64,000 nt of DNA, taken from an uncultured Chthonomonadaceae bacterium. Its GTDB lineage: Bacteria; Armatimonadota; Chthonomonadetes; Chthonomonadales; Chthonomonadaceae. Below the pieces are notes generated by a model. The model was not told the origin of the DNA and made no database searches. It saw nothing but the letters and a program-made list of their open reading frames with translations. The stretch lies in contig CAWIEK010000051.1 of assembly GCA_963835065.1 (NCBI GenBank), forward strand, positions 32,001 to 96,000, given 5' to 3'. A program made the translations under genes and the position numbers. Positions 27,668-45,065 of this stretch are shown here, in pieces (position 1 is the stretch's first letter; each line of letters begins with the position of its first letter).

Positions 27668-29098
27668 GTGGGTCAGTTGTCACGCTGAGTAACAAATACA
27701 AGCGGGCTATTCCTTGCTCTGCCAACGCCTGCGAACGGGACGGTGGGTAAAGGCGCGGCTACCGCCCAGCTTATGACGCTCCCGAAAACGCTGTCGCCGC
27801 TGCCAGCGTTTGCCATGCCACTCAAAGGGCGTCGGATCGGCATTCCAGCCGCGTACCGTAGCGGCCAACCATTCCATGATCTGCGCGGCGCTGTGCGGAT
27901 GCTGACCACACAGAGCGCGGCGTACCAGAATGCGCTGAATGGCTTCGGCCATGTTCAGCCACGAACCGCCCAGAGGCGTATATAAAAGAAGGATGCCTCG
28001 CTGCACACACCAGTCCACCATTTCCGGTGTATAGTGGCCGGCCAGATTGTCCCAGATCAAGATCAAGCGCACGAGCGGTCCCAGGCCATCGGCAAAAGCC
28101 GCGGGAGGAAAGCCCCAATCTACCCAATGCCGTCCCCAACCGCTTTGGGCTTCGGGAGAGAGTTCCGGCAGCGCGTCCAGGATCGCCGTCAACTCCTGCT
28201 TGAGCCAGGGATGCAGGATCGCATTGGTCGCTTGCTCGACAGGCAAGGCGCGTACCTGTCCACTGTGGGGATGAAACAGCGTCAGCAGCTTGGCGGTTCC
28301 CTGCCGAATGTACTCATGCGGCTGGCAAGCGGGCTGTCCTTCGGGTTGCCAACTGGCTCCGGGTTGCGGAATGGCTTGGTAGGGTCCGGCTTCGTCCTGG
28401 TTCCACACAGGAATGCCCGCGGCTTCGGCTAAAGTGTACGCCTGCTCGATCAGCCCCTTTTTACGTCGGCATGGGGATCCTGCACGGTTACAACACCGTC
28501 TTTGCGTTTGCGTTGCACGGTTCCCGTGTGACACCAGGTACGGCTTTGTTGCCAGGAATAGCCTGCCTGATGCAGCGTTTGCAGAATGACATAGGTACTC
28601 ACCTTCGGCAGACCATCCGGGGCACGACGCAGAGCGCGCTGCAAGGTCGTCAACGACCAGATTGCGGTCTGATCCTGTTCCCGGTCAGGCGGGCGAGCAA
28701 ACTCTTGAAGGATGCGGGCTTGCTCCTGCGCGCCATAGGCTACGGAAGGACCCCCGCCATGATGTCCGGCGACAGCGGGCATGCCTTCCTGGTTGAAGCG
28801 TCGTACCAGACGGGCAACCGCTTGACGCGAGGTGCGTCCCGCCTGATGAGCCGCCTGTCCAAAAGTCTGGCCCTCGGCGACGGCCAGAAGTTCCTTGGCG
28901 CGGGCGATGCGATCTGCCGGAGCGCTACGCGAACGCGCCAGAGCCGAGAGTTCGTAGCGCTCGGCTTGAGTTAAGGTGCGTAAAGGTTCTTTAGGTGGAC
29001 GTGCCATACTCCTTCTCCTGCGGGAGCCAAGGTGCTCCACGCAACAGAAGCGACGAGGCACATACCGGATTTGTTCCTGTGCGTGACAACTGACCCAC
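27668..29098 (-). mobile_element. IS630-family IS (1431 bp)
   Basis: 18-bp perfect TIR GTGGGTCAGTTGTCACGC; TA duplication in a CTAG target (27666-27667 / 29099-29100). Confidence 0.92.
27707..29007 (-). CDS. IS630 transposase, orfA (HTH) + orfB (DDE) via -1 frameshift
   Basis: QDEAG, WDNLAGH, SWLNMAE motifs; AAAAAGGGG at the junction near 28455. Confidence 0.9.
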
Positions 29099-29701
29099 TA
29101 GTGGCCTGACGAATATGGCGCAGAAGCGTGTTCGGACTGACGAGCAACCCTAAACTCACGGCCAACCGCGCTCCGGCTTCGCCGCCCAGAGCGTAGCCGA
29201 GCAGGTACAAGGCGTGGTGCAAGCGGTTTGTCTTACGCGCATAGCGAACCGCGAGATCAGGGAGCGGCTCGGTAAAGATGCGGCGTGAGCATCCTGGCTC
29301 GTCGCAAAAGAACTTGCGTGCCTGCACGTTGATTTGCACGGCAATGTGGTTCCAGGGCATATCGGCGAGAGTACGTGAGTAGCGGCTATGCACTCGTACC
29401 GAAGTGTGTTGGCACACAGGGCACAGAGCCGAAGTCGCCACCACAGCCAGGTCAACCAGGATTTTGTTGGCACAGTTTGTAACTTGAAGAACCCGCAGGC
29501 CGTCGCCTGTGGGCAGCAAAGTAGGAGTAGACATACTACTTTTTACTGGCTGCCATCTAGTCACAGTTCCGCTTCACCAAAAGCAGCGGTGAACCAAATT
29601 ATCGGGGGTAGATCAAACCTTGTTAATCTCTTCACAGGCGTTTGCCCCCTATTATCTTATCAATGGAAGGGGCAGAACAGGAAGATTGATGAGGCGCGAA
29701 C

Positions 29702-30193
29702 ATGGGGAAACTGGTGCAAATTGCGGACGTGCAGGCGCAGCATCTAGAACAGCTTGCGGCTGCGAAGGGCACAACGGAAAGCCCGTTGGTGGAACAGGCA
29801 TTGGAACTGCTGTTTGGGCAAAGCGGCAGGGATGAGGCTCTGCGCACAGACAAAGAAGCGTTACAGCAGTTGGAAGCGGAAGGTGTCTTGCCATCCCCGC
29901 ATCAGATCACGCCTCCCCTCAACCCCGATGAGTACCAGATGACACATGCCGTTCGTATTACGTCGGAAATGACCCGCGACTGCGCTTCTACCATACGCCG
30001 TCTGCCGGTTGACATGCCAGAGGATGAACCCGCTCAATTGTCTTTAACTCCCCGCACACCGGGACTGAGTCAAGGCGAAGTGTGGATAGCCCCGGATTTC
30101 GATGCTTCTATGCCCGACGAATGGCTTGAAGAGTTTTACAATGGAGAACTCTTTTCATGCAAAGTCGGTGTTCAAGTCGCTTTGCAAGCATGA
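29702..30193 (+). CDS. Chimeric antitoxin-like protein (RHH-like N-terminus, DUF2281-like C-terminus)
   Basis: LEQLAAAKGTTESPLVEQALE; RTPGLSQGEVWIAPDFDASMP. No toxin gene follows. Confidence 0.55.
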   Translation: MGKLVQIADVQAQHLEQLAAAKGTTESPLVEQALELLFGQSGRDEALRTDKEALQQLEAEGVLPSPHQITPPLNPDEYQMTHAVRITSEMTRDCASTIRRLPVDMPEDEPAQLSLTPRTPGLSQGEVWIAPDFDASMPDEWLEEFYNGELFSCKVGVQVALQA

Positions 30194-30202
30194 GTGAACG
30201 GG

Positions 30203-33200
30203 CTATGGATACACGCCTTTGTCGTAAAAGCGGATTTCGACGCGGTGTACGGATTTGGGGTTGCTCCCGGAACCGCCTGCCAACTCAATGCGGTTTGCCT
30301 CGCCGAACCGAACCATTGGCGTCACGTTGAAAACCGTTACCTGCTCCCGTATCTGTTCGCTGCGCTTCAGCAACTGGCCGTTGATGAGGAGGGAGAACCT
30401 GTCTCCCGTTGCCTCATAATAGATGACGACATTGCGGCCTTTGCGCGCGGCGTCAATCACCACATCGCGGCTCAGGAACATGCCCGTGAAGGTGCCGGGA
30501 ATCTGTACGTCACTCGTTTTGCGCAGCGGGTCGGCGTAGGCTGTCCACGTTCCCGCGAGGTCTTGTTGTTCGTGAGCATCCGGCAGATAGTACAGCCAGA
30601 TGGGGCCGTGTGAGCCGGTCAGCGTGGATTTGCCCTGTATGTCAAGGGCCAGCAGATGCGTGGTTCCCGGCTTGAGTATGCCGCCAAGCGCGTCGAAATA
30701 CGGCCCGTCCACGCTTTTCCGCCCGCCCTGCCACGCCGCGCCATCCACAAACAGCCGCGTGTCATAAGCAAACTGCGCGCCCGGAATATCGGCGCATAAC
30801 ACGATCTGCCCCGCCGTCCAGTGCGCGGGCACGGTGAATGTCCGGCGCAGCAAGTGGCGCTTCGCGGTTTTATCTCCCGGCGCAAGCCACAACCCCAACG
30901 GCCTCCGCTCCCACGCCTTATTGTCCACGCCCGGTTGCGCCAGCATTGCGGCCTGTTCGTCGCTTTGCCCCGCAATGTTTTTGTATGCCCAATTCTGCGT
31001 CAGATCAAGGGAAAAGCGCTGCATGTCGGAAGGAGTGGGCAGTTTTTTGGCCGGCGGCTTTACGGTTCCCTGCCACCAGTTGCGCTGCAATCGCAGCCAT
31101 TCCAGTGGGGAAGCCGTCACGTCCGCGCGGGGCGAAACCATCATGCGCGTCTGGCAGGGAGCCAGCGTAATGCCGGGCACTTTATCGCCGCGCGGGTCAC
31201 GAACCACTTCCAATTGCTGCCCGCTCACCACATCCGTCAGGCTTGCGGGGTGAACGTTGGGCAGGAAGGCCAGATCGGTTGCCATCGCGGTATCGGATTC
31301 GTTGAACAGAATCCAGATGTCGTGCAGGCCCGTGTTGCCGATGAAATGCCGCAGATGCAGACCGCGCTGTGGCGCAACCGCAGCGGGAACCCGGTCCGCA
31401 ACGCCGAAATGCCGCAGCAATGCGCTGATGAGCGCGACAAACCGCTCGTCCCGCAAGTCCACGCCGACATGAACGATCCAGCCTGCGCCAAGCGGCCTCA
31501 TGCCGACAGCGACCGCGCCATCCTCCCAAACGGCAAGCGCGCGGCAGTCGGGCGCAGCGGGTTTCAATGCAAGACCCGCCGCCCGCGTCTGGAGCGGCAA
31601 ATCGGCGGGCGTCAATATGTTCTGGCCGGGAACCGGCGACAGCGAACGACCCTCATTCCAATTCTGCTGCCGCGTCACTTCATACCCGCTCAGTTTGCAA
31701 ATAGGCCAGGCGTCCGGCTGTGTTGGCGTATGGCGTCCCGTTTGCCCATACGTGACGAACACGCCGCCCTGCCGCGCGAATGTTTCGATGCCGCCAATCA
31801 ACTCCTCGTCCATGAACACAGAATTGGAGTCAATAATCACGCGGTACTTGCTGACGACGGGCGTACCGAAGTCCTTTGCGCCAATCCCGTCACGCGGACA
31901 GTAGTTCAGCAAATGGCCTGCCGCGTTGAAGCCGGAATAGTAGCCGCCCTGACTGCCCGGTTCCGGCGTCCAGGGGAAGCCTGTCAGCCAGGCGTTTGGC
32001 GAACTGAACAGCACGGCAACGCGGGCAAACGGCGCATGGTACTTGCCGACCATCCGGTACATCGCCAGGTTCGTCTCGAACACTTTCAAAACTTCCGGGT
32101 TCCACGCGATTTCGCCCCAGTTTTGAAAATAATGGATGCCCGTAACGCCTTCAGTCAGCCAGCGTCCCCAAAATAATTGGAATTCGCGGGCGTTGGGCGC
32201 TCCATTACCCGCTTCGGCGGTAACGGGCAGGCCGACGCCGTTCATCAGCAGCGTGTTTTCTTCCGTCCAAAAACCCGCCATGCTGCCCGTGTCGTGGAAC
32301 CTGCCGCCGTAATCCTGACACGCTTTCTTGACCGGATCGGCGTAATCCGTCGCCGCCATGAAGTTGATGGAACTGTCCGGATCCACCTGCCGGATCATTT
32401 CCGCGCCCCGCTGTATCTGCGCCCCCCGCGATTGGATGTTCCATGCGACAAAATCTGCCCACTGCGCGTTTTTGTCCGCGCCGAGATGGGGGTACTGGCG
32501 CACGGGTTCTCTGGTCAGATAAGCGCGATAGCAGATCAGGGCGCGGGGCATTTGCAGGACAAGCGTATTCCGCCCCGGCTTCAGCGCGCCTGTCACGTCG
32601 AACTGACTCCAGTGCTGGTCATTCGCGCCGTGTGATTGCTCCTTGATGGCCTGCCCGTTCACATAAACAAGCGTCGCGTCCTGACTGCGGTTCGCCATGT
32701 CCCACACCACAAGCGTAACGGGCAATGAGGCATTTAGCCAATTTGCGGGAACGTCAAGGGTGCGGCGATAGACAAGCGGGCTGCGTTTCAAAAACAACAT
32801 GCGGTCATTGCCCGGCGCAATCAGTTCGTCCCATTCGCTGTCATCAAAATCGGGCTGATACCACTCTGTAGGAACGGGCGCAATAGGCGGCGGGGAGGGC
32901 AGATTTCGCGCTTCCCCTTCCGTGTACGCATGGCCGTTGGGCGCGGAAACGTACTTGACGCGCCATGCGCCGCGCAGGTCAAGGGCGTCCGGCCCAAATC
33001 CGGCAAAATCGGCGACTTCGGGCAGGCGAACCTCGTCCCACGATTTATAATGACCGTTATTTCCGTGCCAGCGTTCGGACAGCGCCTGCAATGTCTTGTA
33101 ACGCCCGCGCAGCCAGCCGCGCCAAACGTTTTCCGCATACGGCCCGGATTCCAGAAAGTATTTTTGCGGCGCTTCATACGTTTCGCCGTGCGGTTCCAGC

Positions 33201-34171
33201 CAGCCGACGATATTGGGGTCTTTGGCGAAGCGCCGCACCGTCTGCTGAAAAATGCCCAACAGCGCGTCTTCGGCCTCCTGCGACAGCCACGAAATCGCGC
33301 CCAGTCCGGCGGAATCATGGGCGACGCCGTAATAGCCGCCGATAAATTGCGGCGCTTTGAGCATCGTCTGTTCCCGGTAGCGGTTGGCAAGCCACTCCTG
33401 CGGCGGCGAAATCTGCGTGTTGATATGCACGGGGATGCCCTGCCTGCGCGCGTTTATCTGCATCCAGTCCCATGCCGGCTCGTTGGTCAGCCCTTCCGCG
33501 TAATCGTCCGCAAGGGGATTGGTCCACACGACAAGGCCGAGCGGCCCGTGATCCCGCGCGAATTTCAGCGCGTCGTCATAGTCGTAAGTTTGCGCCGAAT
33601 CGGACACGCCGGGTGGCAGGGCATCCGGGGCGAAATAGCACAGCAGGCCGTAACGATCCCAGCGATCCAGGTACATCGGAATCGGAACGCGGGGCCTAAA
33701 GTCCGCAGGGGTCACAATCGGAGGAACAGCCACATTCCACAGCCGCAGCAATGCGGCGTCGTCCACTGCGGTCAGGATCACAACCTCACGTCCGCGCGCA
33801 AAACAGACGACAAACTCGCCAGCCAGGGTAGTGCCAAAGGTGAAATTACGGCCTTTGTGGATGAGATGCCTCTTGCCCAGGATACGCAGGCGTTCCAGAT
33901 CGGACAGGTATTTGGCCTGCGTCAGCCGCGCCTTCTGCGCCGACTCGCAGGCGATATGCGTTACGGAAGCGCGTCCACTCTCCAGAACGCGAAACATGGC
34001 CGAAATCGCGCCGTACCCATGCAGGGTTGTGAGCGGCAGGGTGACAGTCGCGCCACTGCCGACAGGAACGGGGGAAGTTGCCGAAACCGCCACTTCCGCC
34101 GCCAATTCAAGTTCGCCAAGAGCGGCAATCGCAGTGGTTCGCGCCAAAAACGCGCGGCGTGACAGAGGCAT
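30203..34171 (-). CDS. Large Tat-type secreted glycoside hydrolase (GH42/beta-galactosidase-like with trimerisation and jelly-roll domains)
   Basis: MPLSRRAFL Tat motif; PNIVGW, WRGWLRGRYKTLQALSERW, QWADF, FARQGGVFV motifs. Confidence 0.75.
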   Translation of the reverse strand: MPLSRRAFLARTTAIAALGELELAAEVAVSATSPVPVGSGATVTLPLTTLHGYGAISAMFRVLESGRASVTHIACESAQKARLTQAKYLSDLERLRILGKRHLIHKGRNFTFGTTLAGEFVVCFARGREVVILTAVDDAALLRLWNVAVPPIVTPADFRPRVPIPMYLDRWDRYGLLCYFAPDALPPGVSDSAQTYDYDDALKFARDHGPLGLVVWTNPLADDYAEGLTNEPAWDWMQINARRQGIPVHINTQISPPQEWLANRYREQTMLKAPQFIGGYYGVAHDSAGLGAISWLSQEAEDALLGIFQQTVRRFAKDPNIVGWLEPHGETYEAPQKYFLESGPYAENVWRGWLRGRYKTLQALSERWHGNNGHYKSWDEVRLPEVADFAGFGPDALDLRGAWRVKYVSAPNGHAYTEGEARNLPSPPPIAPVPTEWYQPDFDDSEWDELIAPGNDRMLFLKRSPLVYRRTLDVPANWLNASLPVTLVVWDMANRSQDATLVYVNGQAIKEQSHGANDQHWSQFDVTGALKPGRNTLVLQMPRALICYRAYLTREPVRQYPHLGADKNAQWADFVAWNIQSRGAQIQRGAEMIRQVDPDSSINFMAATDYADPVKKACQDYGGRFHDTGSMAGFWTEENTLLMNGVGLPVTAEAGNGAPNAREFQLFWGRWLTEGVTGIHYFQNWGEIAWNPEVLKVFETNLAMYRMVGKYHAPFARVAVLFSSPNAWLTGFPWTPEPGSQGGYYSGFNAAGHLLNYCPRDGIGAKDFGTPVVSKYRVIIDSNSVFMDEELIGGIETFARQGGVFVTYGQTGRHTPTQPDAWPICKLSGYEVTRQQNWNEGRSLSPVPGQNILTPADLPLQTRAAGLALKPAAPDCRALAVWEDGAVAVGMRPLGAGWIVHVGVDLRDERFVALISALLRHFGVADRVPAAVAPQRGLHLRHFIGNTGLHDIWILFNESDTAMATDLAFLPNVHPASLTDVVSGQQLEVVRDPRGDKVPGITLAPCQTRMMVSPRADVTASPLEWLRLQRNWWQGTVKPPAKKLPTPSDMQRFSLDLTQNWAYKNIAGQSDEQAAMLAQPGVDNKAWERRPLGLWLAPGDKTAKRHLLRRTFTVPAHWTAGQIVLCADIPGAQFAYDTRLFVDGAAWQGGRKSVDGPYFDALGGILKPGTTHLLALDIQGKSTLTGSHGPIWLYYLPDAHEQQDLAGTWTAYADPLRKTSDVQIPGTFTGMFLSRDVVIDAARKGRNVVIYYEATGDRFSLLINGQLLKRSEQIREQVTVFNVTPMVRFGEANRIELAGGSGSNPKSVHRVEIRFYDKGVYP

Positions 34172-34335
34172 TTGTTGTTTGTCCTTATCTTCCAGTTCCG
34201 CGCCCTTGCTGTCTCGGTGAAAACGTCGTGGAAGCCAGAAGCCCCGAAAGCGCTTATCTTCAGGAACACTATTCACCATTCGAGCAGGATTGTACTGCCT
34301 GAATCCCATATTCGGTTCGCGGGGAAGAAAAAACA

Positions 34336-34364
34336 TTGACAAGGCGCGCGGACTGTGTTATAAT
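34336..34364 (+). promoter_or_regulatory. Consensus sigma70 promoter of the lacI-family gene
   Basis: TTGACA-17 nt-TATAAT with extended TG. Confidence 0.85.
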
Positions 34365-34371
34365 CCGGTCA

Positions 34372-34417
34372 TTATATCGTTAAAGCAGCGGAATTTCTCG
34401 TTTGTTTAACGATAAAA
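34372..34417. promoter_or_regulatory. Two putative LacI-family operators
   Basis: TATCGTTAAA (34375-34384) and its reverse complement TTTAACGATA (34405-34414); both CG-centred and AT-flanked. Confidence 0.6.
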
Positions 34418-34446
34418 CGGCATGAACGCGGAAGGAAGCAACGGCT

Positions 34447-35445
34447 TTGCGCAGAACGAACTCGGTGAAGATGAAGGATGTGGCGGAACGGGCGGGCGTC
34501 AGCGCCATGACCGTCTCGCTGGCCCTCGGCGGTTCGCCGCGCATTACCGAGGAAACGCGACGGCGCGTTTTGGAAGTGGTCAAGGAACTGCAATACTCCC
34601 CCAATGCGCGCGGGCGCGCGCTCCGTTCCGGCTTTACTAACATCATCGGCCTGTATGCGGGCTTTGGCTCCGTCAACGTGCGCCTGCCCTTTTATACGGA
34701 AGTGGTGAGCGGCCTGCAGGAGGGGTGCGAACAGGTGAAGAAAGACCTGCTGCTGCACGGCATCTTTCACGGCGGGGATGCCGCCGACATTTTTACGGAA
34801 CTGGCGGATGGCAGAATTGACGGGCTGGTGGTCAACATGCCGCAGGACAATCCCCTCGCGGCGCGACTGGCCGAATCCGGTTTCCCCGTCGTCGCCATTG
34901 CCGATCCTCTGTTTCATATCCCGTCCGTGATGGTAAACGATGCGGAAGGTTCGCGCCTGCTTGTGGAGCATTTGCAGCAGCGCGGACACCGGCGCGCGGC
35001 GTACCTGAGCAGCCCGGCGCGTCCCATTTCCGCCGTGCGCCGCCATGAAGCGTTTATGCAAACCGCCGCCCAATGCGGCATTGCAGTGGAAGAAGTCTGC
35101 TATGACGGCGAGGCAGGCCGAAACCATCCGTTCGCGCTGAATTTACTGCGGCGCGACCCCGCCCATCGCCCGACTGCGATTGCCTGCTGGAACGACCAGA
35201 CCGCTTATGAAATGCTTTCCGAATGTGAGCGTCACGGCGTCCGCGTACCCGATGATGTGGCTGTCGTGGGCTTCGATGGAACCTCCACGGTGTATGGAAG
35301 CCGAGGTTCGCTCACGACCATTCGCGCGCCCTGGGCGGAAGTGGCGCGCACCGCCGTTTTGTACCTCGATCATCTGCTGAAAGGAGAACCGGTTCCCCAA
35401 GAGACCGTACTGCCCATTGAATTTGTTCAGGGGCATACCACTTGA
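34447..35445 (+). CDS. LacI-family transcriptional regulator
   Basis: [39 protein letters not shown]. Confidence 0.95.
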
Positions 35446-35448
35446 TAC

Positions 35449-35563
35449 TGAATACGTGGGTGTTCCGGTGTTCGGGTATTCAGGGAATACAAAAGTGCCA
35501 GCGTATAGTTTACGCAACAAGGCCAACACCCGAACACCGGAACACCCGAACACCCGAATACCT
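35449..35563. repeat. Inverted clusters of CCGAACAC-like 8-mers
   Basis: gggtgttccggtgttcgggtatt pairs with aacacccgaacaccggaacaccc. Confidence 0.75.
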
Positions 35564-35584
35564 GCCACCGAAGGAGGGTTTGCT

Positions 35585-36394
35585 ATGCAGCGACGCAAAG
35601 GATTTACACTGATCGAACTGCTCGTCGTGATTGCCATCATTGCGATCTTGGCGGCTATATTGTTCCCCGTGTTCGCGCAGGCGCGTTCCAAAGCGCGTCA
35701 GGCCAGTGACTTGAGCAACATGAAGCAGTTGGGAACGGCGATGCTGATGTACGTGCAGGATTACGACGAACATTATAATCCGACGGGCAACGGCAACGGC
35801 GCGATTTGCCCCGGCGAACCCAGCGCATCCTGGGACCTCTGGCCCGCGCTGCTGTACCCGTATGTCAAAAACGGACAGGTGTTCATTTCGCCGCAGTTCA
35901 AGGCCGAAGACAACCTTTACGGGACAACCTGGTACTGCCACGCGCACCTCCAGCCCATGCTCCTTAGCGGCAAATTCTACGTGTCCTACATGATGAACAG
36001 CTTTGAAACGTGGAGCTGGCAAGGCGGCACGGTCTGGAAGAACGCCGGGGATCATTACGGCTTCCGCTACAACCCGCAGGACGCGGTTGGGCTGGCGCAG
36101 GTTTCGCAGCCGGCAAGCACCATTCTGCTGACCAACGGCATTTATACGGACATCGGCTGGGAACCCTTCACCGACTATTACGCGCAGGGCACTCCGAACA
36201 CGCCGGGCGTCACGTATGTCGGCAAGGACTACACCGCCAAAACCGCGCAGCAGGGCGGCCCGTTCGCGGAGCGCGTCAATCTTACCTGGGCCGATGGACA
36301 CGCCGGCTCCCGCAGGTGGGGAACCCTGAATCCCGGCCTGTGGATCGTTCAGGACGATAAGGACGCCTGGACCAATCCCTACGTCGGGCACTGA
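35585..36394 (+). CDS. Prepilin-type N-terminal cleavage/methylation protein with DUF1559 and a C-terminal ADGH motif
   Basis: [60 protein letters not shown]. Confidence 0.93.
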
Positions 36395-36451
36395 TAGTCT
36401 CACATTCCTCAAGTCTCAAACTTTCGGGTCGCAAACTTTCAAGGAGTACCC

Positions 36452-36673
36452 ATGATGCGCGTTGAAATCTCTCGAAGATGCGGGGTTTTTGCCCTCCTGC
36501 TTGCCACAAGCCTGCTGTGCCCCGGATGCGGCGGCAAGGGCGCGGGCGATACGGTTCCTTCGCCGCCGCGGGAACTCGTGGACAAAAGCTTTCATCCGCC
36601 CACAAATGGAGGCCCGCCCATGCCTGCGCCTGCCACATCCGGCAAATCCGCGCCGACGTCCGCCGGAAAGTAA
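36452..36673 (+). CDS. Small Pro-rich lipoprotein
   Basis: AAGGAG RBS; hydrophobic stretch ending CPGCGG. Confidence 0.6.
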   Translation: MMRVEISRRCGVFALLLATSLLCPGCGGKGAGDTVPSPPRELVDKSFHPPTNGGPPMPAPATSGKSAPTSAGK

Positions 36674-36738
36674 GGGACGCGCGACTGCTCTTTTTCCCAA
36701 CCCTCCTCTCAACTTTGGGAGGAGGGAACAATTCTATT

Positions 36739-37938
36739 ATGACCCTCTTTATAAACAATTTTCTGCTGCTTAAACTGCTCGCTTCACATTTTGTTGCCGT
36801 CGCGCTTCTGGCGGCTGTGGCGGGCATAGCAGTAACGGCTTCCCTGCCTGCCAAAGCGGACGAACCTCCACACAGCTTTCTTGCGGGCGCGGACTGTTCG
36901 CATGTGGGCTTCTTCGAGGCGCTTGGCAAAACTTACCGCGAAGATGGCGTTGTTGCCGATCCTTTTCTTATTTTGAAGCGGGACGGCATCAATTGTGTGC
37001 GCCTGCGGCTTTTTACGGGCAGTGATGAGTACGCGAAGCAGGATTCCTACAACACCATCAATAATCTGACGTACACGGTTCCCCTGGCCGCGCGGGTGAA
37101 GAAAACCGGTTTGCAGTTCCTGCTGGATTTTCACTATTCCGACACCTGGGCCGACCCCGACAAGCAGGCCAAACCCGCCGCGTGGAAGGAATTATCCTTC
37201 GACCAACTGGAACAGCGTTTGTTCGAGTACAATCGGGACTGTATCGCCGCTTTTAAGAAGGCGGGGGCGATGCCGGATTACGTGCAGGTGGGCAATGAAA
37301 TCACGCCGGGAATGTTGTGGCCGGACGGGAAAGTGGGCGGCAAGTTCGACACGCCGGAGCAGTGGCAGAAATTGGGACGCCTGCTGAAAGCCGCCATTCG
37401 GGGCATTACGGAAGCCGCCGGGAGCGACATGCCCAAACTGGTCATTCACATTGACCGGGGCGGCGATTGGAAGGCGACGCAGTGGTTTTTCGACCATTTG
37501 CGGGAACAGCAGGTGCCGTTCGACATCATCGGCGAAAGCTACTATCCCTTCTGGCACGGCAGTCTCGAAGCCTTACAAACCTGCCTGGTCAATGCCGCGC
37601 AACGCTACCAAAAGCCGGTCATGGTTGCCGAAACCGCCTTTCCCTGGGACACGAAATCGCGGGGCGACAAGGCGATTGTCGGGATTATGCCGGGCAGGGA
37701 AGGCCAAGTCCAATTCATGGAGAAGCTGGCGGCGATTGTGAAGGGTGTGCCGAACGGCAGGGGAATGGGCATCTTCTACTGGGCGGCGGAGTTTCAGCCG
37801 CTTGCCGGCACCGGCCTTGCGGGTTTTGAGAACAGTTCCTTCTTTGATGAGGACGGCAACGCCCTGCCCGTCCTCAAAGCGTTCGGGCAGCTTTCCAAAC
37901 CGACTTCCGTTTCCGGCAAATCCTTACCCGGCAAGTGA
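36739..37938 (+). CDS. Arabinogalactan endo-beta-1,4-galactanase (GH53)
   Basis: VRLRLF, LLDFHYSDTWADP, VQVGNE, SYYPFWHG, VAET, GIFYW motifs. Confidence 0.95.
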   Translation: MTLFINNFLLLKLLASHFVAVALLAAVAGIAVTASLPAKADEPPHSFLAGADCSHVGFFEALGKTYREDGVVADPFLILKRDGINCVRLRLFTGSDEYAKQDSYNTINNLTYTVPLAARVKKTGLQFLLDFHYSDTWADPDKQAKPAAWKELSFDQLEQRLFEYNRDCIAAFKKAGAMPDYVQVGNEITPGMLWPDGKVGGKFDTPEQWQKLGRLLKAAIRGITEAAGSDMPKLVIHIDRGGDWKATQWFFDHLREQQVPFDIIGESYYPFWHGSLEALQTCLVNAAQRYQKPVMVAETAFPWDTKSRGDKAIVGIMPGREGQVQFMEKLAAIVKGVPNGRGMGIFYWAAEFQPLAGTGLAGFENSSFFDEDGNALPVLKAFGQLSKPTSVSGKSLPGK

Positions 37939-37959
37939 ACATAACTCGGAATAATTTCT

Positions 37960-39360
37960 ATGCGATTGAAATGGTTCGGCGCAGGCATAATTCTCTTTTG
38001 CGGCGTCCTGCTGTGTCTACGGCTTCTGCGGCCTGGATTGCCTGCTGCAGACGGGGCTGCGTCCGGTCTGTCGGATGTTCCGGCGGGGCGTCTGCAAGGC
38101 GCGATTACGGTTTGGAGCTGGAACACGGCGGCCAAAAGCCTGCAAAAATTGGCTCCGGTCTTTGAGGGGAAACAGCCTGCCGTCAAGGTCAATGTGGATA
38201 TGACGGGAGCGCGGATGCAAACGCGGCTGATGCTGTCGCTCGCCTCCGGGGTGGGAGCGCCCGATGTGTCGCAGTTTGAACTCACGGACGCGCCGCGCTA
38301 TATCGCCACAGGTCGCCTGACCGACCTGACGCCGGTTGCGGCCAAATATAAAAGTCTATTTCCCGCGTCGCTGTGGGACAACTGCACGTGGAAGGGGCGC
38401 GTATACGCTATCCCCTGGGACATCGGCCCCTGCGCCGTTTTTTACAAGTGCGACCTGTTCCGGCGGTATGGCATTGACCCGGCCAAAATCGAAACGTGGG
38501 ACGATTACATCAAGGCCGGGAAAGAGATTTTGCGCAGATCGGGCGGACACACCAAGATGCTGCCGCTCGGCTCCAACTCCCTGCGCCCGATGTTTGAGAT
38601 GCTGATTCAGCAGAGCGGCGGGCAAGTGTTCGACGATCAGGGGCGCATTGCCATCAATTCCCCGCAAACCCGGCAGGCATTATCCATTCTCCAGAAGATG
38701 CGCGGGGCAGGCATCTGTTCCGATATTGCGCTGTGGAGTCAGGAGTTTCTCGCGGGGCTGAACGACGAGAGCATTGCCACTTATCCCATCGCCATCTGGT
38801 TCGCCGGGACGATCAAGGACACGGTTAAGGATTACGCGGGCAAAAAAGCCGAATGGGGCGTGTTCCGCCTGCCTGCCATCACTTCGGGCGGGCTGCGTGT
38901 CGCCAATCTGGGCGGCTCCGTCCTGGTCATTCCCGCGCAGTGCCGCAACAAAGCGGCGGCATGGGCGTTCGTGGAATATGCGCTGTGTACGCGGGAAGGC
39001 CAGATCGCGCAATATCGCAACATGAGCCTGTTTCCCGCGTTTTTGCCCGCCATGCAGAGCCGGGATTTGGACGAGCCGGACCCGTTTTTCGGCGGGCAGC
39101 GCATCGTCCGGCTGTTCGCAACGGACGTGACCAAAATCACGCGGCTGAACCGGACACCGGCCTGGGGCGAAGCGATCCGCTATCTGGATCAGGAACTCAG
39201 CCATTGGGCGGCAAGCGGAATGGCAAGTGAGGGCTTTTTTGAGAACCTGGAGCAGAAAATGCAGCATCGGCTCGGCTTGCCGCTTGCGCCCCAACCGCCT
39301 GCCGCGCCCCCACTTGTTCCCAATAGCGGACTTGTTCCCACTGCCGGGAGGCTGCCATGA
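37960..39360 (+). CDS. Sugar ABC transporter substrate-binding protein
   Basis: ITVWSW, APDV, YAIPWD, TWDDY, LGGS motifs. Confidence 0.92.
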   Translation: MRLKWFGAGIILFCGVLLCLRLLRPGLPAADGAASGLSDVPAGRLQGAITVWSWNTAAKSLQKLAPVFEGKQPAVKVNVDMTGARMQTRLMLSLASGVGAPDVSQFELTDAPRYIATGRLTDLTPVAAKYKSLFPASLWDNCTWKGRVYAIPWDIGPCAVFYKCDLFRRYGIDPAKIETWDDYIKAGKEILRRSGGHTKMLPLGSNSLRPMFEMLIQQSGGQVFDDQGRIAINSPQTRQALSILQKMRGAGICSDIALWSQEFLAGLNDESIATYPIAIWFAGTIKDTVKDYAGKKAEWGVFRLPAITSGGLRVANLGGSVLVIPAQCRNKAAAWAFVEYALCTREGQIAQYRNMSLFPAFLPAMQSRDLDEPDPFFGGQRIVRLFATDVTKITRLNRTPAWGEAIRYLDQELSHWAASGMASEGFFENLEQKMQHRLGLPLAPQPPAAPPLVPNSGLVPTAGRLP

Positions 39361-40271
39361 ATCCCATCCCGAACAGCAGGGACTTGTGGCGCTACCGCCA
39401 TTTCTATCTGTTTGTCGCGCCCTTCTTCGTGCTTTTCGGCGTGTTCGGCCTGTACCCGCTCCTGTTTTCGCTGTATCTCAGCTTCACGCAATGGGACGGC
39501 ATGACCGCGATGCAGTGGGTCGGGCTGTCCAACTTCCGGGCGATGCTCAATGACGAAATCCTCTGGCGGGCGCTGTGGAACACGGTCACAATCGGCCTGC
39601 TGTACGTGCCGCTGATGATGATTCTGGCGTTTCTGTTTGCGCAGGCGCTCAACACGCAATGGCTGAAAATGCGGGCGTTGTACCGCGCGGCGTTTTTCCT
39701 GCCCTGCGTCACGCCGATGGCGGTTATCGCCGTCGTTTTCGGCCTGATTTTCAGTGCGGAAAAAGGCGTTCTGAACTACGTTTTGCAGCAAGTGAACCAT
39801 CTGCTGCCGTTTTTGCATTTGCAGCCGATTCCCTGGCTCACGAGTGAAGCCTGGTCGAAAGTGGCGGTCGCTATTCTGGTGGTGTGGCGCTGGACAGGCT
39901 ACAATATGGTGCTGATGCTAGCGGGCTTGCAGGGGATACCGGGCGAGTATTATGAGGCGGCGGAAGTGGACGGCGCTTCGTCGTGGCAGCGCGTGGCGCA
40001 TATCACGCTGCCCTTAATGCGGCCCACGTTCCGCTTTTGCGGGCTGCTGTCGCTGCTTGGAACGATTTATATGTTCGATGAGATTTTCGTGCTTACGGGC
40101 GGCGGTCCGGGAACCTCTTCCACCAACATCGGCATGTACCTGTTCAACATTTCCTTCAACGATTTCCGCTTCGGCTACGCTTCCTGCGTGGGCTATACGG
40201 TCGCAACGGTTGTGTTTGCGGGTACGCTGCTGGCGTCGCGCCGCAATCGCCGGGAAGGGAAAACGGACTAG
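39357..40271 (+). CDS. Carbohydrate ABC transporter permease
   Basis: EAA loop YEAAEVDGAS; ITLPLM; TGGGP. Confidence 0.95.
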   Translation: MNPIPNSRDLWRYRHFYLFVAPFFVLFGVFGLYPLLFSLYLSFTQWDGMTAMQWVGLSNFRAMLNDEILWRALWNTVTIGLLYVPLMMILAFLFAQALNTQWLKMRALYRAAFFLPCVTPMAVIAVVFGLIFSAEKGVLNYVLQQVNHLLPFLHLQPIPWLTSEAWSKVAVAILVVWRWTGYNMVLMLAGLQGIPGEYYEAAEVDGASSWQRVAHITLPLMRPTFRFCGLLSLLGTIYMFDEIFVLTGGGPGTSSTNIGMYLFNISFNDFRFGYASCVGYTVATVVFAGTLLASRRNRREGKTD

Positions 40272-40273
40272 CG

Positions 40274-41266
40274 ATGCAAACCGGCCCTTCCCCTCAAGAC
40301 ACAACGCAAATAAACCAACACGCAGCCACGCAAGGAACAATCACGCAAGACCTGACTCACGGCACAATGCAAGGGACAACACAAGGGGAAATGAAAGGCG
40401 CAATGCGGCAGGCAAAACCGGGCGCAGCGAAATGGACATTACAGCGGAAAATCGGGCGCGGCCTGCTGTATGTCGCGTTGAGCGTCCTGGCGCTTGTCTT
40501 CATCTTCCCGTTCTACTGGCTGCTGACCTCGGCCTTCAAAACGCAGGCGCAGATTTTCACCGTTCCGCCCCAATGGCTGCCCCTGCCGATCACCGGGCAA
40601 AACTTTGTGGATTTGTACCGGGAAACAAACCTGCCCCGCGCCTTCCTCAACTCGGTCATTATTTCGGGCGGGCATGTCGGCCTGTCGTTGTTTTTGTGTT
40701 CGCTGGCGGGGTATGCGTTTGCCAAGTTTCCGCAGGCTCCGGGACATGGCAAATTGTTCGCCTTTGTGCTGGCGACCATGATGATACCGGGCGCGGTGAC
40801 GCTGATCCCCACATTCCTCATCCTCGTCAACCTGCACTGGATCAATACCTACTGGGCTATGATTATTCCGGGCGCGGCGGGCGCGTTCGGCATCTTCTGG
40901 ATGCGGCAGTACATGAGCGCCAATGTGCCTGACGATCTGGTTCATGCCGCCCGGATTGACGGCTGTACGGAGTTCGGCATTTATTACCGCATTGCCCTCC
41001 CGATTGCCAAACCCGCACTGGCCGCGTTGGGCATTATGCAGTTAATCGGTTCGTGGAACAACCTGATGTGGGCGTTTATCGCGCTGCGCACACAGGATAT
41101 GCTCACGCTCCCCGTCGTCATCTATCTGCTGCAAGGCGAGATACGAACCCCCTACGGCATGTTGATGGCGGGCGGCCTGCTGACAACCCTGCCCCTCGTA
41201 CTCGCGTTCCTCTTCTTCCAAAAACACTTCATTTCCGGCATTACGGCAGGAGCGATCAAGCAGTAG
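40274..41266 (+). CDS. Carbohydrate ABC transporter permease
   Basis: AGYAFAK, AARIDG, QKHFISGITAGAIK; T/Q/G-rich N-terminal extension. Confidence 0.95.
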   Translation: MQTGPSPQDTTQINQHAATQGTITQDLTHGTMQGTTQGEMKGAMRQAKPGAAKWTLQRKIGRGLLYVALSVLALVFIFPFYWLLTSAFKTQAQIFTVPPQWLPLPITGQNFVDLYRETNLPRAFLNSVIISGGHVGLSLFLCSLAGYAFAKFPQAPGHGKLFAFVLATMMIPGAVTLIPTFLILVNLHWINTYWAMIIPGAAGAFGIFWMRQYMSANVPDDLVHAARIDGCTEFGIYYRIALPIAKPALAALGIMQLIGSWNNLMWAFIALRTQDMLTLPVVIYLLQGEIRTPYGMLMAGGLLTTLPLVLAFLFFQKHFISGITAGAIKQ

Positions 41267-41373
41267 GGCCGGCTTATAAAAAGCCGGTTATTAGGCCTGC
41301 GGCCAATCGTCCTGCGGACGAAGAACTGCCGGCGTATTTACGCTGGAGTGTAATCGCGCTGATGCTATTCAAT

Positions 41374-43282
41374 TCAGGCAGTTTGCGGATTTGTCAAAGC
41401 AGTACCCAAATGGGAAGATACTCGACGGCGCGGCAGGGCAATGGCGCTTGTGGCCGCGCCGATTCCCATGACAAGGCACAGGGGCATAATCAGCAGCCAG
41501 CCGACATAAGGAATCAGGCAGGACAGGGACGCCAGCAGGCTTCCCCCAAGCAGTCTGCCAAGCGTTTCGGCCTTGCCGGTTTTTTGCCATAGTTTTCGCG
41601 CAGTCCAACGCGCCCAACTGCCCGCCCCTGCCGCGCCCATTCCGCACAAACTTAACAGCAGAATTGCGCCCATTGCCTGCGCGATGGGATGGAAGGAGAA
41701 AATCAAGCCGGATATTGCGCAAGGTATAAGGATGCAAACCAACAGCCCGCGCCCGAAGCAACGCCCGGTTTGGGTGGCAAGCGCATCCGCTCCGCGCTGT
41801 GTCGCCGCAGGGAGAAGCAATGCCAACATTCCGGGAAGCAGCAGCAAAAATCCCAACGCGAACACGCCCTTCGCCAGCAACGCGCCTGGACGCGCGATTC
41901 CCTCCATAAACAACCCGGCCACGCCATCAACGCTCTTTTCCAGTATTGCCGCGCCCAATGTGGAGCGCTTTTCGCGGTGATGGGCGGGCGGGCGTACCGA
42001 GGCCGCGCCCAGATGCCCCAGATTGGCGATCCACAAAATGCCGTTGTCAATGTCACTGCTGACGTAAACATTAATCAGAACGCCCGCCATTTCATTGACG
42101 TAATCTTCGCCGTTCGTCACCCGCTTGGGCGGATGGTTCGGGTTGGCGGGATTGTCGGCGGAATTGTCGTGCGTCCATTCGCCGTGCAGAATGGTTCCTT
42201 TGGGCAGGCGGTAGCGCTCCTTAACATGGTACGTAGACTGCCAGTTGAAATCCCAATCGTTGATCTTGATAATCGGTTTGGTGGAATGGTCCGGCAGTTC
42301 GGCCCACAATTTGCAGGTTTTGCCGATGAGGTGCATGTGTTCGTAGATGCTTTCCACTTCGACATCTACGGGGAGGGTATACGTGGTTTCCTCCAGATGG
42401 TCTTTTTCTCCCGGCGCAATGTCCAAGTTCAAAACGCCCATTGAGATCAGCGACCCGATTTTCACGGGGGGCTTGTCGGTGAAGTACAGCCCGACCAACG
42501 TTTGATCCGTTTCTTCCCTGCCGTCGGGGTGGTAGTGCATCCCGAACACGAGGTCAATGTCTTTGGGCAGGACGGCGGACGCATCTGTGGGCAGAACTTC
42601 CGCGCCCATTCCCGGCACATACCCCGGCAGCCCGCCGAACGGCAAAAATCCCGGCCCGCCAAAACTGACATAGCCACTCCCCGGCCCGCCCTGCTGCGCT
42701 TCCAACTGCTTCGCCTTGCCGCTTTTGTCCATCATCAGGGTGACATGGTGAACGATGCGCCGATTGCCGGGGCGGATTTCCGTAGCGCGAACGTACTTGT
42801 CGGCAGGCAGATGCAGGGAAACCACAAAACTCCGCGTCACGTCCTTGCCTTCGGCGGGAACGGTATACGGTTTGGGCATCTTGAGGATCATGTCGGGCTT
42901 GCCCAACTGCCAGCCGTCCGGGAATTGCGGCGCGGGCGGCAGGTCGGACGGATTGCCTTCGGGCGCTCCACTTCGCGGCCCACTGCTGTATCAGCGTCCT
43001 TTGCTTGTCCGTCAGCCGCCGCTCGTGCTGAAACTCGCCGTAGCCGGCTTCCAGTTTCCAGGGCGGCATCAGGCGCTTTTCGGTGACAATGGCAATTTGT
43101 TTTGCCCGTTTTGCCGCGTCGCGGTACGTCAGCAGGGAAAAAGGAGCCACTTCGTCAGGCCGGTGACAATTGGAGCAGTTATTGAAGAGAATGGGCGCAA
43201 TGTCTTTGCTGAACGTAGGCGTGTCGGCGCGCGCCGGTATTGCCTGCGCGATCATCCCGGCCAACACGAGCGGAAGCAACAT
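41374..43282 (-). pseudogene. Heme-c motif + copper type II monooxygenase-like protein fused to a C-terminal membrane domain; one frameshift
   Basis: CSNCH; VHH; MHYH; HMH; NEM motifs. One extra base near 42970 (should read WAAxGAPEG). Four TM-like segments at the C-terminus. Confidence 0.75.
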
Positions 43283-43461: not shown

Positions 43462-44940
43462 TCATGGCTGTGTTCCCGTGGGCGGCTGTGTTCCTGTGGG
43501 CGGCTGCGCGTCCTTCTTCTTTTGTGACGCTTTGCGCAGGGCTTCCATGATTTGGCGCATACCCTCAGCGCTGCTGTTGCCCGCGCGTTCCGAGTCTACG
43601 GTGAAGCCGAGGTAGCACAGGCACATTTCATCCGTCGTTTGTTCGCCCCATTTCACGTCTTTGGGAGGGTTGCTCGGATTGCGCGGGTTGCCTGTTGAGT
43701 TGTCGTAATGGGCGCTGAGATGGATTTGCGTTCCGGCGGGCAGTTTGAGCGGCTGCTTGTAATAATAAAAGCCCTGCCAGTTGAAGTCCCAATCCGGCAC
43801 GTTGACCAGGGTTTTGGCCGTGCCGTCGGGCAGCGTGGCCGTGACCGTCATGGTTCGGCCCAACAGGTGCATGTGTGGAAATATGTCAATCAAGGTAGCG
43901 TCAATGGGTATTTTACCGCCGGGCAGGTCCTGATGTTCCTCGTGATTGCTTTCGCCCGCCGGCACATACATCCTCGTTTGGGCTAAGGGGAGAATATGAA
44001 ACGGATGCTCCACTTTCCCTTTGTTGAAGTACACGGCGACCTGTGAGCGATCTGTTTCCGCTTTGCCGTCCCGGTGATAATGTACTTCCAGCACGATGTC
44101 CGCGCCCTTCGGCAGCAGAATCCCTGTATCGGCCGGAAGGTGGTGCGGGGTGGCTCCGGGCGCCCATCCGCCCAACATGCCTGCCGGGAGGAACCCGACG
44201 CCGCCGAACGTGGTATACCCCGGCCCCAGGTCGGCGTCTTTGGAATTCGCGTTCAGTCTCCGCGCTGTGCCGCTCGTATCCACATAGGCCAGAATGTGAT
44301 GCACGACGGCGCGGTTGCCGGGATGCACGTCAATGGCCGACACCCAGCGGTCTTCGGTAAAGTTGGTGGGAACCACGTAGCAACGGTACACGTCGCGCCC
44401 TTCCGCGCCCACTTTGTATTCCGCCGAAGGCTGCGCGAGCATATCGGGAGCGCCCAACGTCCAGCCGTCCTTGAATTTCGGGGCGGGCGGCAGGTCGGCG
44501 GGGTTGCCTTCTTTTGCGCCCTGATCCACCCACGTTTTAATGAGAGCAATCTGCGCGTCCGTCAAATGCCGCTCGTCCTGAAACTCGCCATGCGAGTCCG
44601 TCTTCCAGGGCGGCATAGCGTGGCTTGCCGTGACCAGCGCGATCTGGCGGGCACGTTTTTGCGCATCTTTGTAAGCCGACAGCGTGAAGGGAGCCACTTC
44701 ACCCGGACGATGACAAACGGTGCAGTTCTGGTACACAATCGGCGCAATATCGCGGGTAAACGTCAAAGCGCGTCCCAACGCTGCGCTGCCGTCTTTGTGT
44801 TTTACATCTTTGCGCGTTACGGGCATGGATTTACCGGGCGTATCCGCGTGGGCGGCATAGTGACCTGTCGCCCCTCCCGTCAGGGCAACAGCGGTTAATG
44901 CAAGCGGCATCAGCAGCCACAATTTTGTCGTCCGAGGCAT
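43462..44940 (-). CDS. Secreted heme-c motif + copper type II ascorbate-dependent monooxygenase-like protein
   Basis: Signal peptide; CTVCH; MPPW; VVHH; VHYH; PHMHLLG; WDFNWQ; DEMC. Confidence 0.85.
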   Translation of the reverse strand: MPRTTKLWLLMPLALTAVALTGGATGHYAAHADTPGKSMPVTRKDVKHKDGSAALGRALTFTRDIAPIVYQNCTVCHRPGEVAPFTLSAYKDAQKRARQIALVTASHAMPPWKTDSHGEFQDERHLTDAQIALIKTWVDQGAKEGNPADLPPAPKFKDGWTLGAPDMLAQPSAEYKVGAEGRDVYRCYVVPTNFTEDRWVSAIDVHPGNRAVVHHILAYVDTSGTARRLNANSKDADLGPGYTTFGGVGFLPAGMLGGWAPGATPHHLPADTGILLPKGADIVLEVHYHRDGKAETDRSQVAVYFNKGKVEHPFHILPLAQTRMYVPAGESNHEEHQDLPGGKIPIDATLIDIFPHMHLLGRTMTVTATLPDGTAKTLVNVPDWDFNWQGFYYYKQPLKLPAGTQIHLSAHYDNSTGNPRNPSNPPKDVKWGEQTTDEMCLCYLGFTVDSERAGNSSAEGMRQIMEALRKASQKKKDAQPPTGTQPPTGTQP

Positions 44941-44981
44941 CACGCGGAACTCCTTGAAAGCAAGCAAACAAAAATGGACAA

Positions 44982-44997
44982 GTAAGTAAACACTTAC
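44982..44997. promoter_or_regulatory. Putative TetR operator
   Basis: Palindrome GTAAGT-AAAC-ACTTAC just downstream of a minus-strand TG-n-TACAAT -10 element. Confidence 0.6.
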
Positions 44998-45065
44998 CAC
45001 ATACCTATTGTAACATGAGATTCGCCCAAAGTACACATCTTCCCATTATTTTTTCGGAATTTTGT

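Follow-up and report, generated by a model that had tools for sequence, protein, structure and literature searches.

A Pilin-Like DUF1559 Protein and a Micro-Lipoprotein in a Predicted Galactan Utilization Locus of an Uncultured Chthonomonadaceae Bacterium

RESULTS

Gene content of the locus

The window analyzed here is a 64-kb stretch of a contig from an uncultured Chthonomonadaceae bacterium (G000:C51:32001-96000; genome of 8.0 Mb in 71 contigs with 57% G+C and contamination given as 3.7%). Its subject is a block of genes in which a pilin-like protein of the DUF1559 type and a 73-residue micro-lipoprotein are encoded between a LacI-family repressor and the components of a predicted beta-1,4-galactan utilization pathway (Table 1). 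Genes were assigned with the list of open reading frames (ORFs) and Pfam profiles, and 54 window proteins were scanned. An earlier reading of the same DNA (here, the original prediction) had named LacI, DUF1559, the 73-residue lipoprotein, a GH53 galactanase, a solute-binding protein (SBP), and two permeases of an ATP-binding cassette (ABC) transporter as co-oriented genes, and all of them were recovered at the expected places by ORFs and Pfam. The same holds for the divergent 1,322-residue glycosidase with a twin-arginine (Tat) motif, for the type IV prepilin motif, and for the claimed lack of a TonB-dependent receptor: no TonB-dependent receptor, SusC-like protein, or SusD-like protein was found among the 54 scanned window proteins. 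No ABC ATPase gene was detected by Pfam among the eight proteins of the locus.

The galactan-related part of the block is ordinary. The GH53 protein matches solved endo-beta-1,4-galactanases (2e-59), and the closest solved relatives of the SBP are 6q5g and 6h0h (approximately 1.6e-34), the latter of which we take to be a bifidobacterial beta-galactoside binder. When read from the ATG codon, the glycosidase begins with MPLSRRAFLARTT and includes the Tat motif SRRAFL. It matches the Pfam profiles GH2_N (5.8e-9), GH42 (8.6e-7; partial, profile positions 57 to 194 of 376), and GH42M (1.5e-4; below its cut-off) and has no match among the sequences of solved structures (PDB). By these similarities, the protein appears to be a remote GH42 relative that also carries a GH2-type sugar-binding domain, and a role as the beta-galactosidase partner of the pathway is predicted. 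The start of the LacI gene is uncertain (TTG at 34447, GTG at 34465, or ATG at 34471).

TABLE 1 Features of the predicted galactan locus (window coordinates)
Feature	Position	Strand	Evidence or remark
Divergent glycosidase ORF	30203-34342 as listed (TTG start at 34342); 30203..34171 from ATG at 34171	-	1,322 aa from ATG
Sigma-70-type promoter TTGACA-17-TATAAT with TG extension, ahead of LacI	34336..34364	+	12/12 hexamer positions, consensus match
Candidate LacI-type operator TATATCGTTAAA, one mismatch to TTTAWCGWTAAA	34373-34384	+	Motif match
Candidate LacI-type operator TTTAACGATAAA, perfect fit to TTTAWCGWTAAA	34405-34416	+	Motif match
LacI-family repressor	34447..35445	+	LacI helix-turn-helix (HTH) 2.8e-17, Peripla_BP_3 1.8e-31
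Long stable hairpin, inverted AACACCC-type repeat units	35457..35548	+	Between LacI and pilin-like gene
DUF1559-type pilin-like protein, 269 aa	35585..36394	+	N_methyl 3.2e-10, prepilin motif
Micro-lipoprotein, 73 aa	36452..36673	+	Lipobox Cys26; database homologs; no family
GH53 endo-beta-1,4-galactanase, N-terminal signal sequence	36739..37938	+	Pfam 1.2e-94
Carbohydrate ABC SBP (SBP_bac_1/8)	37960..39360	+	Pfam
ABC permease 1 (BPD_transp_1)	39357-40271	+	Pfam
ABC permease 2 (BPD_transp_1)	40274-41266	+	Pfam

Promoter and candidate operators

The two candidate operators that had been proposed for LacI sit directly downstream of the full-consensus promoter. They are the sole matches to TTTAWCGWTAAA in the window, in which 0.24 matches were expected and two were reached in 3 of 100 shuffles, and perfect sites are confined, among 229 loci, to the window locus and the locus of genome G017 described below. 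The only other promoter-like site on the plus strand between positions 34000 and 41800 (9/12, at 41463) is located past the end of the block, and the number of terminator-like structures across the block was not above that in shuffled sequences. The arrangement of one 12/12 promoter and two operators ahead of LacI, with no comparable promoter between LacI and position 41266, thus supports an operon architecture. The hairpin that follows LacI has a minimum free energy of -56.3 kcal/mol (z score, -4.7; equal stability in 0 of 200 shuffles) and may represent a site of processing, an attenuator, or the relic of a repeat. A search of window positions 30000 to 42000 against Rfam gave no matches at an E value of ≤1.

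Orthologous blocks in the family

Orthologs of the pilin-like protein were sought in 42 genomes of the family at an E value of ≤1e-60, with up to 61 candidates of each genome being scored. Among these scored candidates, orthologs were identified in 5 of the 42 genomes, i.e., the window genome (G000), G017 (66% identity), G018 (76%), and G025 and G027 (71% each). GH53 genes occur in 14 of the 42 genomes, including all five with an ortholog. Two genomes of the same genus as G000 contain no GH53 gene and, among the scored candidates, no ortholog of the pilin-like protein, suggesting that the galactan block may be accessory.

The block of G017, which represents a different genus, has the genes for LacI (E value of 3.7e-143 to the LacI of the window), DUF1559, the lipoprotein, and GH53 arranged as in the window and all co-oriented; unrelated genes rather than ABC genes come next. 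Three perfect TTTAWCGWTAAA sites lie ahead of it, a number reached in 0 of 200 shuffles, together with a promoter read from the sequence as TTGACA-17-TATACT. An SBP gene is located directly downstream of GH53 in 5 of the 11 other GH53 loci of the family. In a tree of 12 GH53 sequences, the two fused copies (i.e., those adjoining the DUF1559-lipoprotein pair) fall in sister clades with a joint-clade support of 82/89, a topology that fits one fusion or two.

The micro-lipoprotein as a predicted partner

Six database homologs of the micro-lipoprotein were found at 58 to 73% identity (71 to 128 residues, five of them having 71 to 75), in addition to an ortholog in locus L052. A Gly-Cys lipobox (Cys26) and the motif TVPSPPRxLVxxSF are both invariant in their alignment. 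By a strict pattern, 9 of the 62 DUF1559 paralogs of the genome are followed by a micro-lipoprotein ORF (one of the nine looks spurious), compared with 7 of 1,500 control genes, and subfamilies of paralogs are matched by subfamilies of lipoproteins.

Predictions of a complex between the head of the pilin-like protein (residues 28 to 269) and the lipoprotein (residues 26 to 73) gave scores of 0.88, 0.88, and 0.80, compared with 0.00 for the highest-scoring of three controls. For calibration, 116 of 157 solved complexes attained the mark used, as did 2 of 215 mismatched pairs; these counts are rough for this case, in which our own alignments were used. The runs had at least 53% of their contacts in common, with a pLDDT of 51 to 59 for the partner. 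In the predicted interface, lipoprotein residues 30 to 50, which correspond to the invariant motif, are placed against head residues 98 to 112, 127 to 146, and 186 to 216. These models suggest that the micro-lipoprotein likely binds the pilin head. Because just four residues separate the lipid anchor from the docking peptide, anchoring would keep the head close against a membrane.

Family and fold of the pilin-like protein

The prepilin motif of the pilin-like protein is of the G/F-x-x-x-E type with Glu at +5, is followed by a hydrophobic helix, and was also recognized in profile searches by TIGR02532 (3.6e-9). The match to DUF1559/SBP_bac_10 (PF07596) is at 7e-5 (23.4 bits, the cut-off being 23.3) and covers profile positions 2 to 65 of 268 only. 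The protein has 7,988 database relatives at an E value of ≤1e-10, many of which carry PF07596, so that membership in the family is marginal by score and clear by kinship. Its orthogroup comprises approximately 30 database proteins that align over the full length at 51 to 88% identity. The model for the H-X9-DG prepilin-associated domain, presumably TIGR04294, was absent from the 12 NCBIfam matches of the protein, and an H-x(7-11)-DG[HS] pattern is present in 46 of the 78 ORFs of the genome that have a prepilin motif.

An AF2 model of the protein (pLDDT, 93.5; pTM, 0.88) contains a helix at residues 9 to 59. When a profile of 97 relatives was compared with PDB sequences, PilA-type helices were matched with E values down to 9e-15, at the N terminus only (positions 3 to 74). 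Structural comparison with VIA-align placed pilins and pseudopilins in 18 of the 20 top rows, spanning model residues 7 to 254; these included PilA4 (Z score, 5.1; root mean square deviation [rmsd], 3.4; 119 aligned residues), EpsG (Z, 4.6), CofA (Z, 4.5), ComP (Z, 4.4; rmsd, 4.0; 98 aligned residues), and PulG (Z, 3.7). A search of the ESM Atlas with residues 60 to 269 gave a best score of 0.80, which is at the level of chance. Most simply, the modeled head would be a pilin core with large insertions. A genuine solute-binding fold, as the family name SBP_bac_10 might imply, was considered and set aside, there being no such fold in the Foldseek or VIA-align lists (a family missing from these lists is not thereby excluded).

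Pairing of regulators with DUF1559 in other genomes

We compared 79 loci of other Armatimonadota genomes, picked solely by likeness to the pilin-like protein, and 80 metagenome loci. In the genome loci, 12 of 14 LacI-like ORFs immediately precede a DUF1559 gene on the same strand, at a distance of up to approximately 100 nt. The 11 of these 12 regulators that were scanned with Pfam were all confirmed and carry the sugar-binding Peripla_BP_3 domain (seven with a LacI HTH and four with a GntR HTH). All eight such regulators in the metagenome loci occupy the same position relative to the DUF1559 gene. The metagenome loci, which rest on N-terminal matches and included no true ortholog among the matches listed, were used for this count alone. 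Homologs of the window SBP, permeases, and GH53 were found within 3.7 kb of the pilin-like gene in 0 of the 159 external loci, orthologous loci apart. The stable unit is a sensor-regulator gene followed by DUF1559 and, in some cases, by a micro-lipoprotein gene. In two other Armatimonadota loci, a large DUF6785/DUF6784 protein is encoded after LacI-DUF1559 (L083:10180-12249 and L114:13323-14214, the latter as fragments).

DUF1559 paralogs, sensors, and machinery in the genome

PF07596 has 70 matches across the genome. A motif scan identified 78 ORFs with a prepilin motif, of which 63 (62 distinct) have the family signature LFPVFAQAR and at least 180 residues. The genome contains six LacI-HTH genes above the cut-off (seven hits), four of which abut a DUF1559 paralog (on C51, i.e., the window contig, C9, C26, and C41). 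A related operator-like site, TTTAGCGTTAAA, is located upstream of a fifth paralog, which is flanked by a GH31 gene on one side and a micro-lipoprotein gene on the other. The LacI gene divergent to the C41 paralog (L030:6980-8048) consists of two overlapping ORFs and may be frameshifted; an NPCBM alpha-galactosidase gene is nearby.

Two further paralogs are associated with riboswitches. The sole cobalamin riboswitch of the genome (C49:773319-773528; L040) is approximately 370 nt upstream of a paralog, which is followed by genes for an NMT1-like binding protein and a DUF169 protein. The sole thiamine pyrophosphate (TPP) riboswitch (C62:31459-31559; L047) is approximately 190 nt upstream of another paralog, which forms a single-gene unit, the next gene being convergent. 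Both elements were confirmed when the full set of 51 paralog loci (546 kb) was scanned with Rfam; the only other riboswitch in that scan was a ZTP element that is not upstream of a paralog. The genome as a whole contains a single partial hit to the TonB-dependent receptor profile (PF00593), on another contig, along with one prepilin peptidase (a Peptidase_A24 hit at C39:38244), nine hits to T2SSE ATPases, and four to secretins.

Other observations concern the paralogs themselves. Tandem repeats of 7 bases (e.g., GGGAACA, CCCAACA, CTCAACG, and ATCGAAA) are translated in the long prepilin leaders of approximately 14 to 19 of the 62 paralogs (e.g., C33:22470, C29:39579, and C53:25190). The sole in-frame ATG is often 5' of the repeats, so that a change of one unit would shift the frame. 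Phase variation by these arrays was considered and rejected: the genome contains 1,330 perfect period-7 arrays, only 19 of which are upstream of paralogs, so that the leader arrays resemble local members of a repeat class found throughout the genome, and the ATG of the window gene is 3' of the repeats. Three paralogs (L006 and L011; C3:56348-64403 and C12:33487-53399) are a few genes from FG-GAP/UnbV_ASPIC proteins, a recurrent non-sugar context that includes a tetratricopeptide repeat (TPR) protein in two settings and a multiheme cytochrome-like gene in one. Identical paralogs with identical upstream sequences occur on different contigs (C1:3399 and C28:5391; C26:1934 and C62:10033), which indicates assembly duplicates or recent duplications.

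Other features of the window

Window positions 24378 to 29564, 1 to 6 kb from the end of the glycosidase gene, contain transposase genes and fragments (IS4/5-type DDE_Tnp_1 with DUF4096, ISL3, and DDE_3 with an HTH), among which is a MazF/PemK-like toxin gene (26039-26380). Elsewhere, the window encodes a 1,214-residue polysaccharide export protein with six SLBB stretches (6408-10052), a copper type II monooxygenase-like protein (43462-45036), and a 600-residue serpin (47870-49672).

DISCUSSION

Comparison with known systems

The closest counterpart of the galactan-related genes is the gan system of Bacillus subtilis, described (PMC5472308) as the repressor GanR and the genes ganSPQAB, with beta-1,4-galactobiose as the inducer. 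According to the parts of that account consulted here, both systems pair a LacI-family repressor acting on inverted repeats in the promoter region (in the window, the operators are predicted from the motif) with a secreted GH53, an SBP with two permeases, and a beta-galactosidase partner, for which the window offers a partial GH42 match only. The window locus includes no ABC ATPase gene, and none is named in the ganSPQAB list. Unlike gan, the window locus has its repressor gene at the head of the operon, DUF1559 and micro-lipoprotein genes lying between it and GH53, and, as the glycosidase, a 1,322-residue Tat-signal protein that is distantly GH42-like. The presence of secretins and lipoproteins suggests that the organism, unlike the Bacillus host of gan, likely has an outer membrane to cross. 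The pectic galactan polysaccharide utilization locus (PUL) of Bacteroides, as excerpted from PMC5238430, is likewise a substrate-induced locus that pairs GH53 with dedicated envelope uptake, a role that we can only infer for the window. In the window, SusC-like and SusD-like proteins are absent, and their slot is occupied by the pilin-like protein and the lipoprotein.

Similarities to systems with class III signal peptides or pilin folds are also partial. The window protein resembles other DUF1559 proteins of Planctomycetota and relatives, with approximately 62 paralogs in this genome, in having an N_methyl motif followed by LFPVFAQAR...QDYDE. It differs from typical members in barely reaching the Pfam cut-off and in the Phe that replaces the His of H-X9-DG, and from the others in having a named regulator, a candidate operator, a predicted partner lipoprotein, and a candidate substrate. 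Type IV filament uptake systems, as far as the sources consulted describe them (competence pseudopili, the DNA-binding minor pilin ComP, and the fibers of PMC5394234), would share with the window protein the use of a pilin-fold ligand binder in import. Here, in contrast, the proposed ligand is a plant glycan, the gene lies with a catabolic operon rather than with pilus machinery, a lipoprotein is the partner, and the system is known from genes only. Proteins of the Sulfolobus bindosome (PMC3047682) likewise carry a class III (prepilin-type) signal peptide and work with sugar ABC transporters. Bindosome proteins, however, are ordinary ABC SBPs, whereas the head of the window protein matched pilins only and is bacterial.

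A functional account of DUF1559 was not found in the literature searched, where the domain is called unknown or merely mentioned; supplements were outside the search, and the sources were seen in part. In Planctopirus limnophila, DUF1559 proteins are reported, in the portion of PMC10632474 consulted, to form the largest paralog group, with 68 copies, two of them essential. The term "H-X9-DG" was met only in an unrelated context, and titles and the beginnings of abstracts retrieved for Armatimonadetes with prepilin, or for Fervidibacter with pilin, contained nothing on the module. The galactan-related part of the locus is of a familiar kind, and the pilin-like protein/lipoprotein module inside it is not described in the literature searched.

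A candidate galactan receptor

We tentatively propose, at slightly less than an even chance, that the locus is a LacI-headed beta-1,4-galactan block in which the DUF1559 protein and the lipoprotein act as a galactan-specific receptor or adaptor of a type IV filament/secretin route to or across the outer membrane. By analogy with GanR of Bacillus, LacI would repress the block, probably a single transcript, at the two operators, and a galacto-oligosaccharide that GH53 produces would release the repressor. The pilin-like protein is predicted to be cleaved by the single prepilin peptidase of the genome, and peptide 30 to 50 of the lipoprotein, in the modeled complex, would dock on its head. Mounted on a short filament, or kept at the outer membrane by the lipoprotein, the head would bind galactan fragments released by GH53, which would then be passed to the periplasmic SBP and on to the ABC permeases. 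Such a complex may fill the role taken elsewhere by SusC/D or TonB-dependent receptors. A precedent is provided by Planctomycetes, in which gold-labeled dextran was reported (PMC5394234, in the portion consulted) to bind pili-like fibers and to accumulate in the periplasm. Also in favor of the proposal are the promoter-operator layout, the orthologous block of G017, the nesting of the five ortholog-bearing genomes among those with GH53, the wiring of paralogs to sensors, the near absence of TonB-dependent receptors from a genome with a prepilin peptidase, T2SSE ATPases, and secretins, the predicted complex with a conserved lipoprotein, and the pilins among the structural matches.

The following observations weigh against this proposal. 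Around the paralogs of the genome, only 4 of 25 ABC permease hits are within 5 kb of a paralog, in three loci that include the window locus, and the 110 neighbors (±4 genes) of the first 13 of 62 paralogs are mostly not sugar related, with few sugar enzymes among them. They include amidohydrolases, WD40, GGDEF, ankyrin, dehydrogenases, TPR, FG-GAP/ASPIC, and cytochromes. As all ±4 neighbors were scanned for these 13 paralogs, five further loci being scanned in addition, with no matched background, this is a rough negative, and as such it indicates that the DUF1559 family is not a general satellite of carbohydrate-active enzyme (CAZyme) or ABC genes and that its recurrent neighbor is the sensor-regulator. 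In the protein itself, the H-X9-DG motif keeps DG(H) but has Phe in place of His. A Foldseek comparison of the model with the PDB returned nothing at an E value of ≤0.001 beyond the N-terminal helix, and every VIA-align match, at a Z score of ≤5.1, is below the level of approximately 8 at which this tool is trusted. At the DNA level, the strong hairpin between LacI and the pilin gene could split the transcripts. The tie to GH53 is also loose across the family: the pair is upstream of GH53 in only 1 of the 11 other GH53 loci (that of G017), 9 of the 14 GH53-bearing genomes have no DUF1559 ortholog at an E value of ≤1e-60 among the scored candidates, and, in G018, G025, and G027, the DUF1559-lipoprotein pair lies behind a LacI paralog that is 27% identical to that of the window, with GH53-SBP located elsewhere.

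Our reading of these distributions is that two conserved units, one of a sensor, DUF1559, and a lipoprotein and the other of GH53, SBP, and permeases, co-occur in genomes and, in two genera or more, have come together under a single repressor of the galactan type. The link of the module to galactan is real but narrow. The original prediction had presented the pilin-like protein and lipoprotein as a capture or uptake module and had expected DUF1559 genes to be enriched next to LacI, CAZyme, and ABC genes. The first of these claims stands in part: a conserved sugar-regulated unit with GH53/ABC, the single strong promoter with operators, the recurrence of gene order and operator in a second genus, the predicted complex, and the wiring of paralogs to nutrient sensors in a genome nearly devoid of TonB-dependent receptors speak for it, and the lack of general CAZyme/ABC enrichment speaks against it. 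The expected enrichment was seen next to LacI (four of six genes) and not for ABC permeases or, in the 13 paralogs sampled, for CAZymes.

Alternative explanations

The G017 operon, with LacI, DUF1559, lipoprotein, and GH53 genes and no transporter after them, would also suit a role in secretion, in which the pilin-like protein, together with the lipoprotein, would serve as a pseudopilin specific for its cargo in a type II secretion system (T2SS)-like machine and would export GH53, and perhaps the Tat glycosidase, across the outer membrane instead of importing sugar. The signal sequence on GH53, the major T2SS pseudopilins EpsG and PulG among the (low-Z) structural matches, and the secretins and T2SSE ATPases of the genome are all consistent with such an adaptor. 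We nevertheless consider it unlikely, because the paralogs behind the TPP and cobalamin riboswitches have no adjoining secreted enzyme, which argues for import over export, most of the 20 external regulator-DUF1559 pairs lack an adjacent co-directional secreted hydrolase, and the pair is unlinked from GH53 in G018, G025, and G027. Somewhat less probable is a bindosome-like binder in the periplasm, anchored by its N-terminal helix or by the lipoprotein, that hands oligosaccharides to the ABC system. The class III signal motif, the adjoining ABC system of the window, the family name SBP_bac_10, and the precedent of Sulfolobus sugar-binding proteins with class III signal peptides (PMC3047682, as far as consulted) would fit it, but the ABC system already has its own SBP, no homolog of the window SBP or permeases was seen within 3.7 kb of DUF1559 in the 159 external loci or next to the 20 regulator-DUF1559 pairs, and the top structural matches are pilins, with no periplasmic-binding-protein fold in the Foldseek or VIA-align lists (an absence that is not proof).

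Pilin features under the control of a sugar sensor would also be expected of an adhesive pilin that is induced by the substrate, fixes cells to plant wall material rich in galactan, and has no role in transport, and glycan-binding modular minor pilins are described, in the material consulted, for Streptococcus sanguinis. Control by cobalamin and TPP riboswitches, approximately 62 paralogs, and the near absence of TonB-dependent receptors better suit the uptake of small nutrients, making an adhesin improbable here. It is also conceivable that the parts share no function and that LacI-DUF1559-lipoprotein is a self-contained, often shuffled cassette that came to lie beside GH53-ABC by chance. The separation of cassette and GH53-SBP in three genomes, insertion sequence (IS) elements 5 to 10 kb upstream in the window, and the two same-genus genomes without either unit are in keeping with such a history. 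Against it, gene order, an orthologous LacI, and the operator recur in a second genus, GH53 is present in all five genomes with an ortholog, and a single promoter-operator region heads the block; we therefore regard chance adjacency as very improbable.

Implications

The proposed galactan receptor could be one case of a broader scheme, which we put forward as possible but rather doubtful. DUF1559 proteins would be interchangeable ligand-specific heads of a type IV filament/secretin importer that replaces TonB-dependent transporters in Armatimonadota and likely in the phyla of Planctomycetes, Verrucomicrobia, and Chlamydiae (PVC). Each paralog, often with its own micro-lipoprotein, would be wired to the sensor of its nutrient (i.e., LacI/GntR-type regulators for sugars and riboswitches for cobalamin and thiamine), and the window copy would be the receptor for beta-1,4-galactan.

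The locus combines a gan-type operon with a component of the type IV filament family and yields a specific, testable prediction. It is a cheap test case, given that beta-1,4-galactan and galactobiose are commercially available and that a named repressor and operator, a predicted 20-residue partner peptide, and a second genus with the LacI-to-GH53 block are at hand. Among the paralog families of Planctomycetota and Armatimonadota that have no assigned function, DUF1559 is one of the largest, and the question addressed is how polysaccharides and vitamins pass the outer membrane without SusC/D or TonB-dependent receptors. If the proposal is true, these proteins would represent a new class of nutrient capture system that may be tested paralog by paralog.

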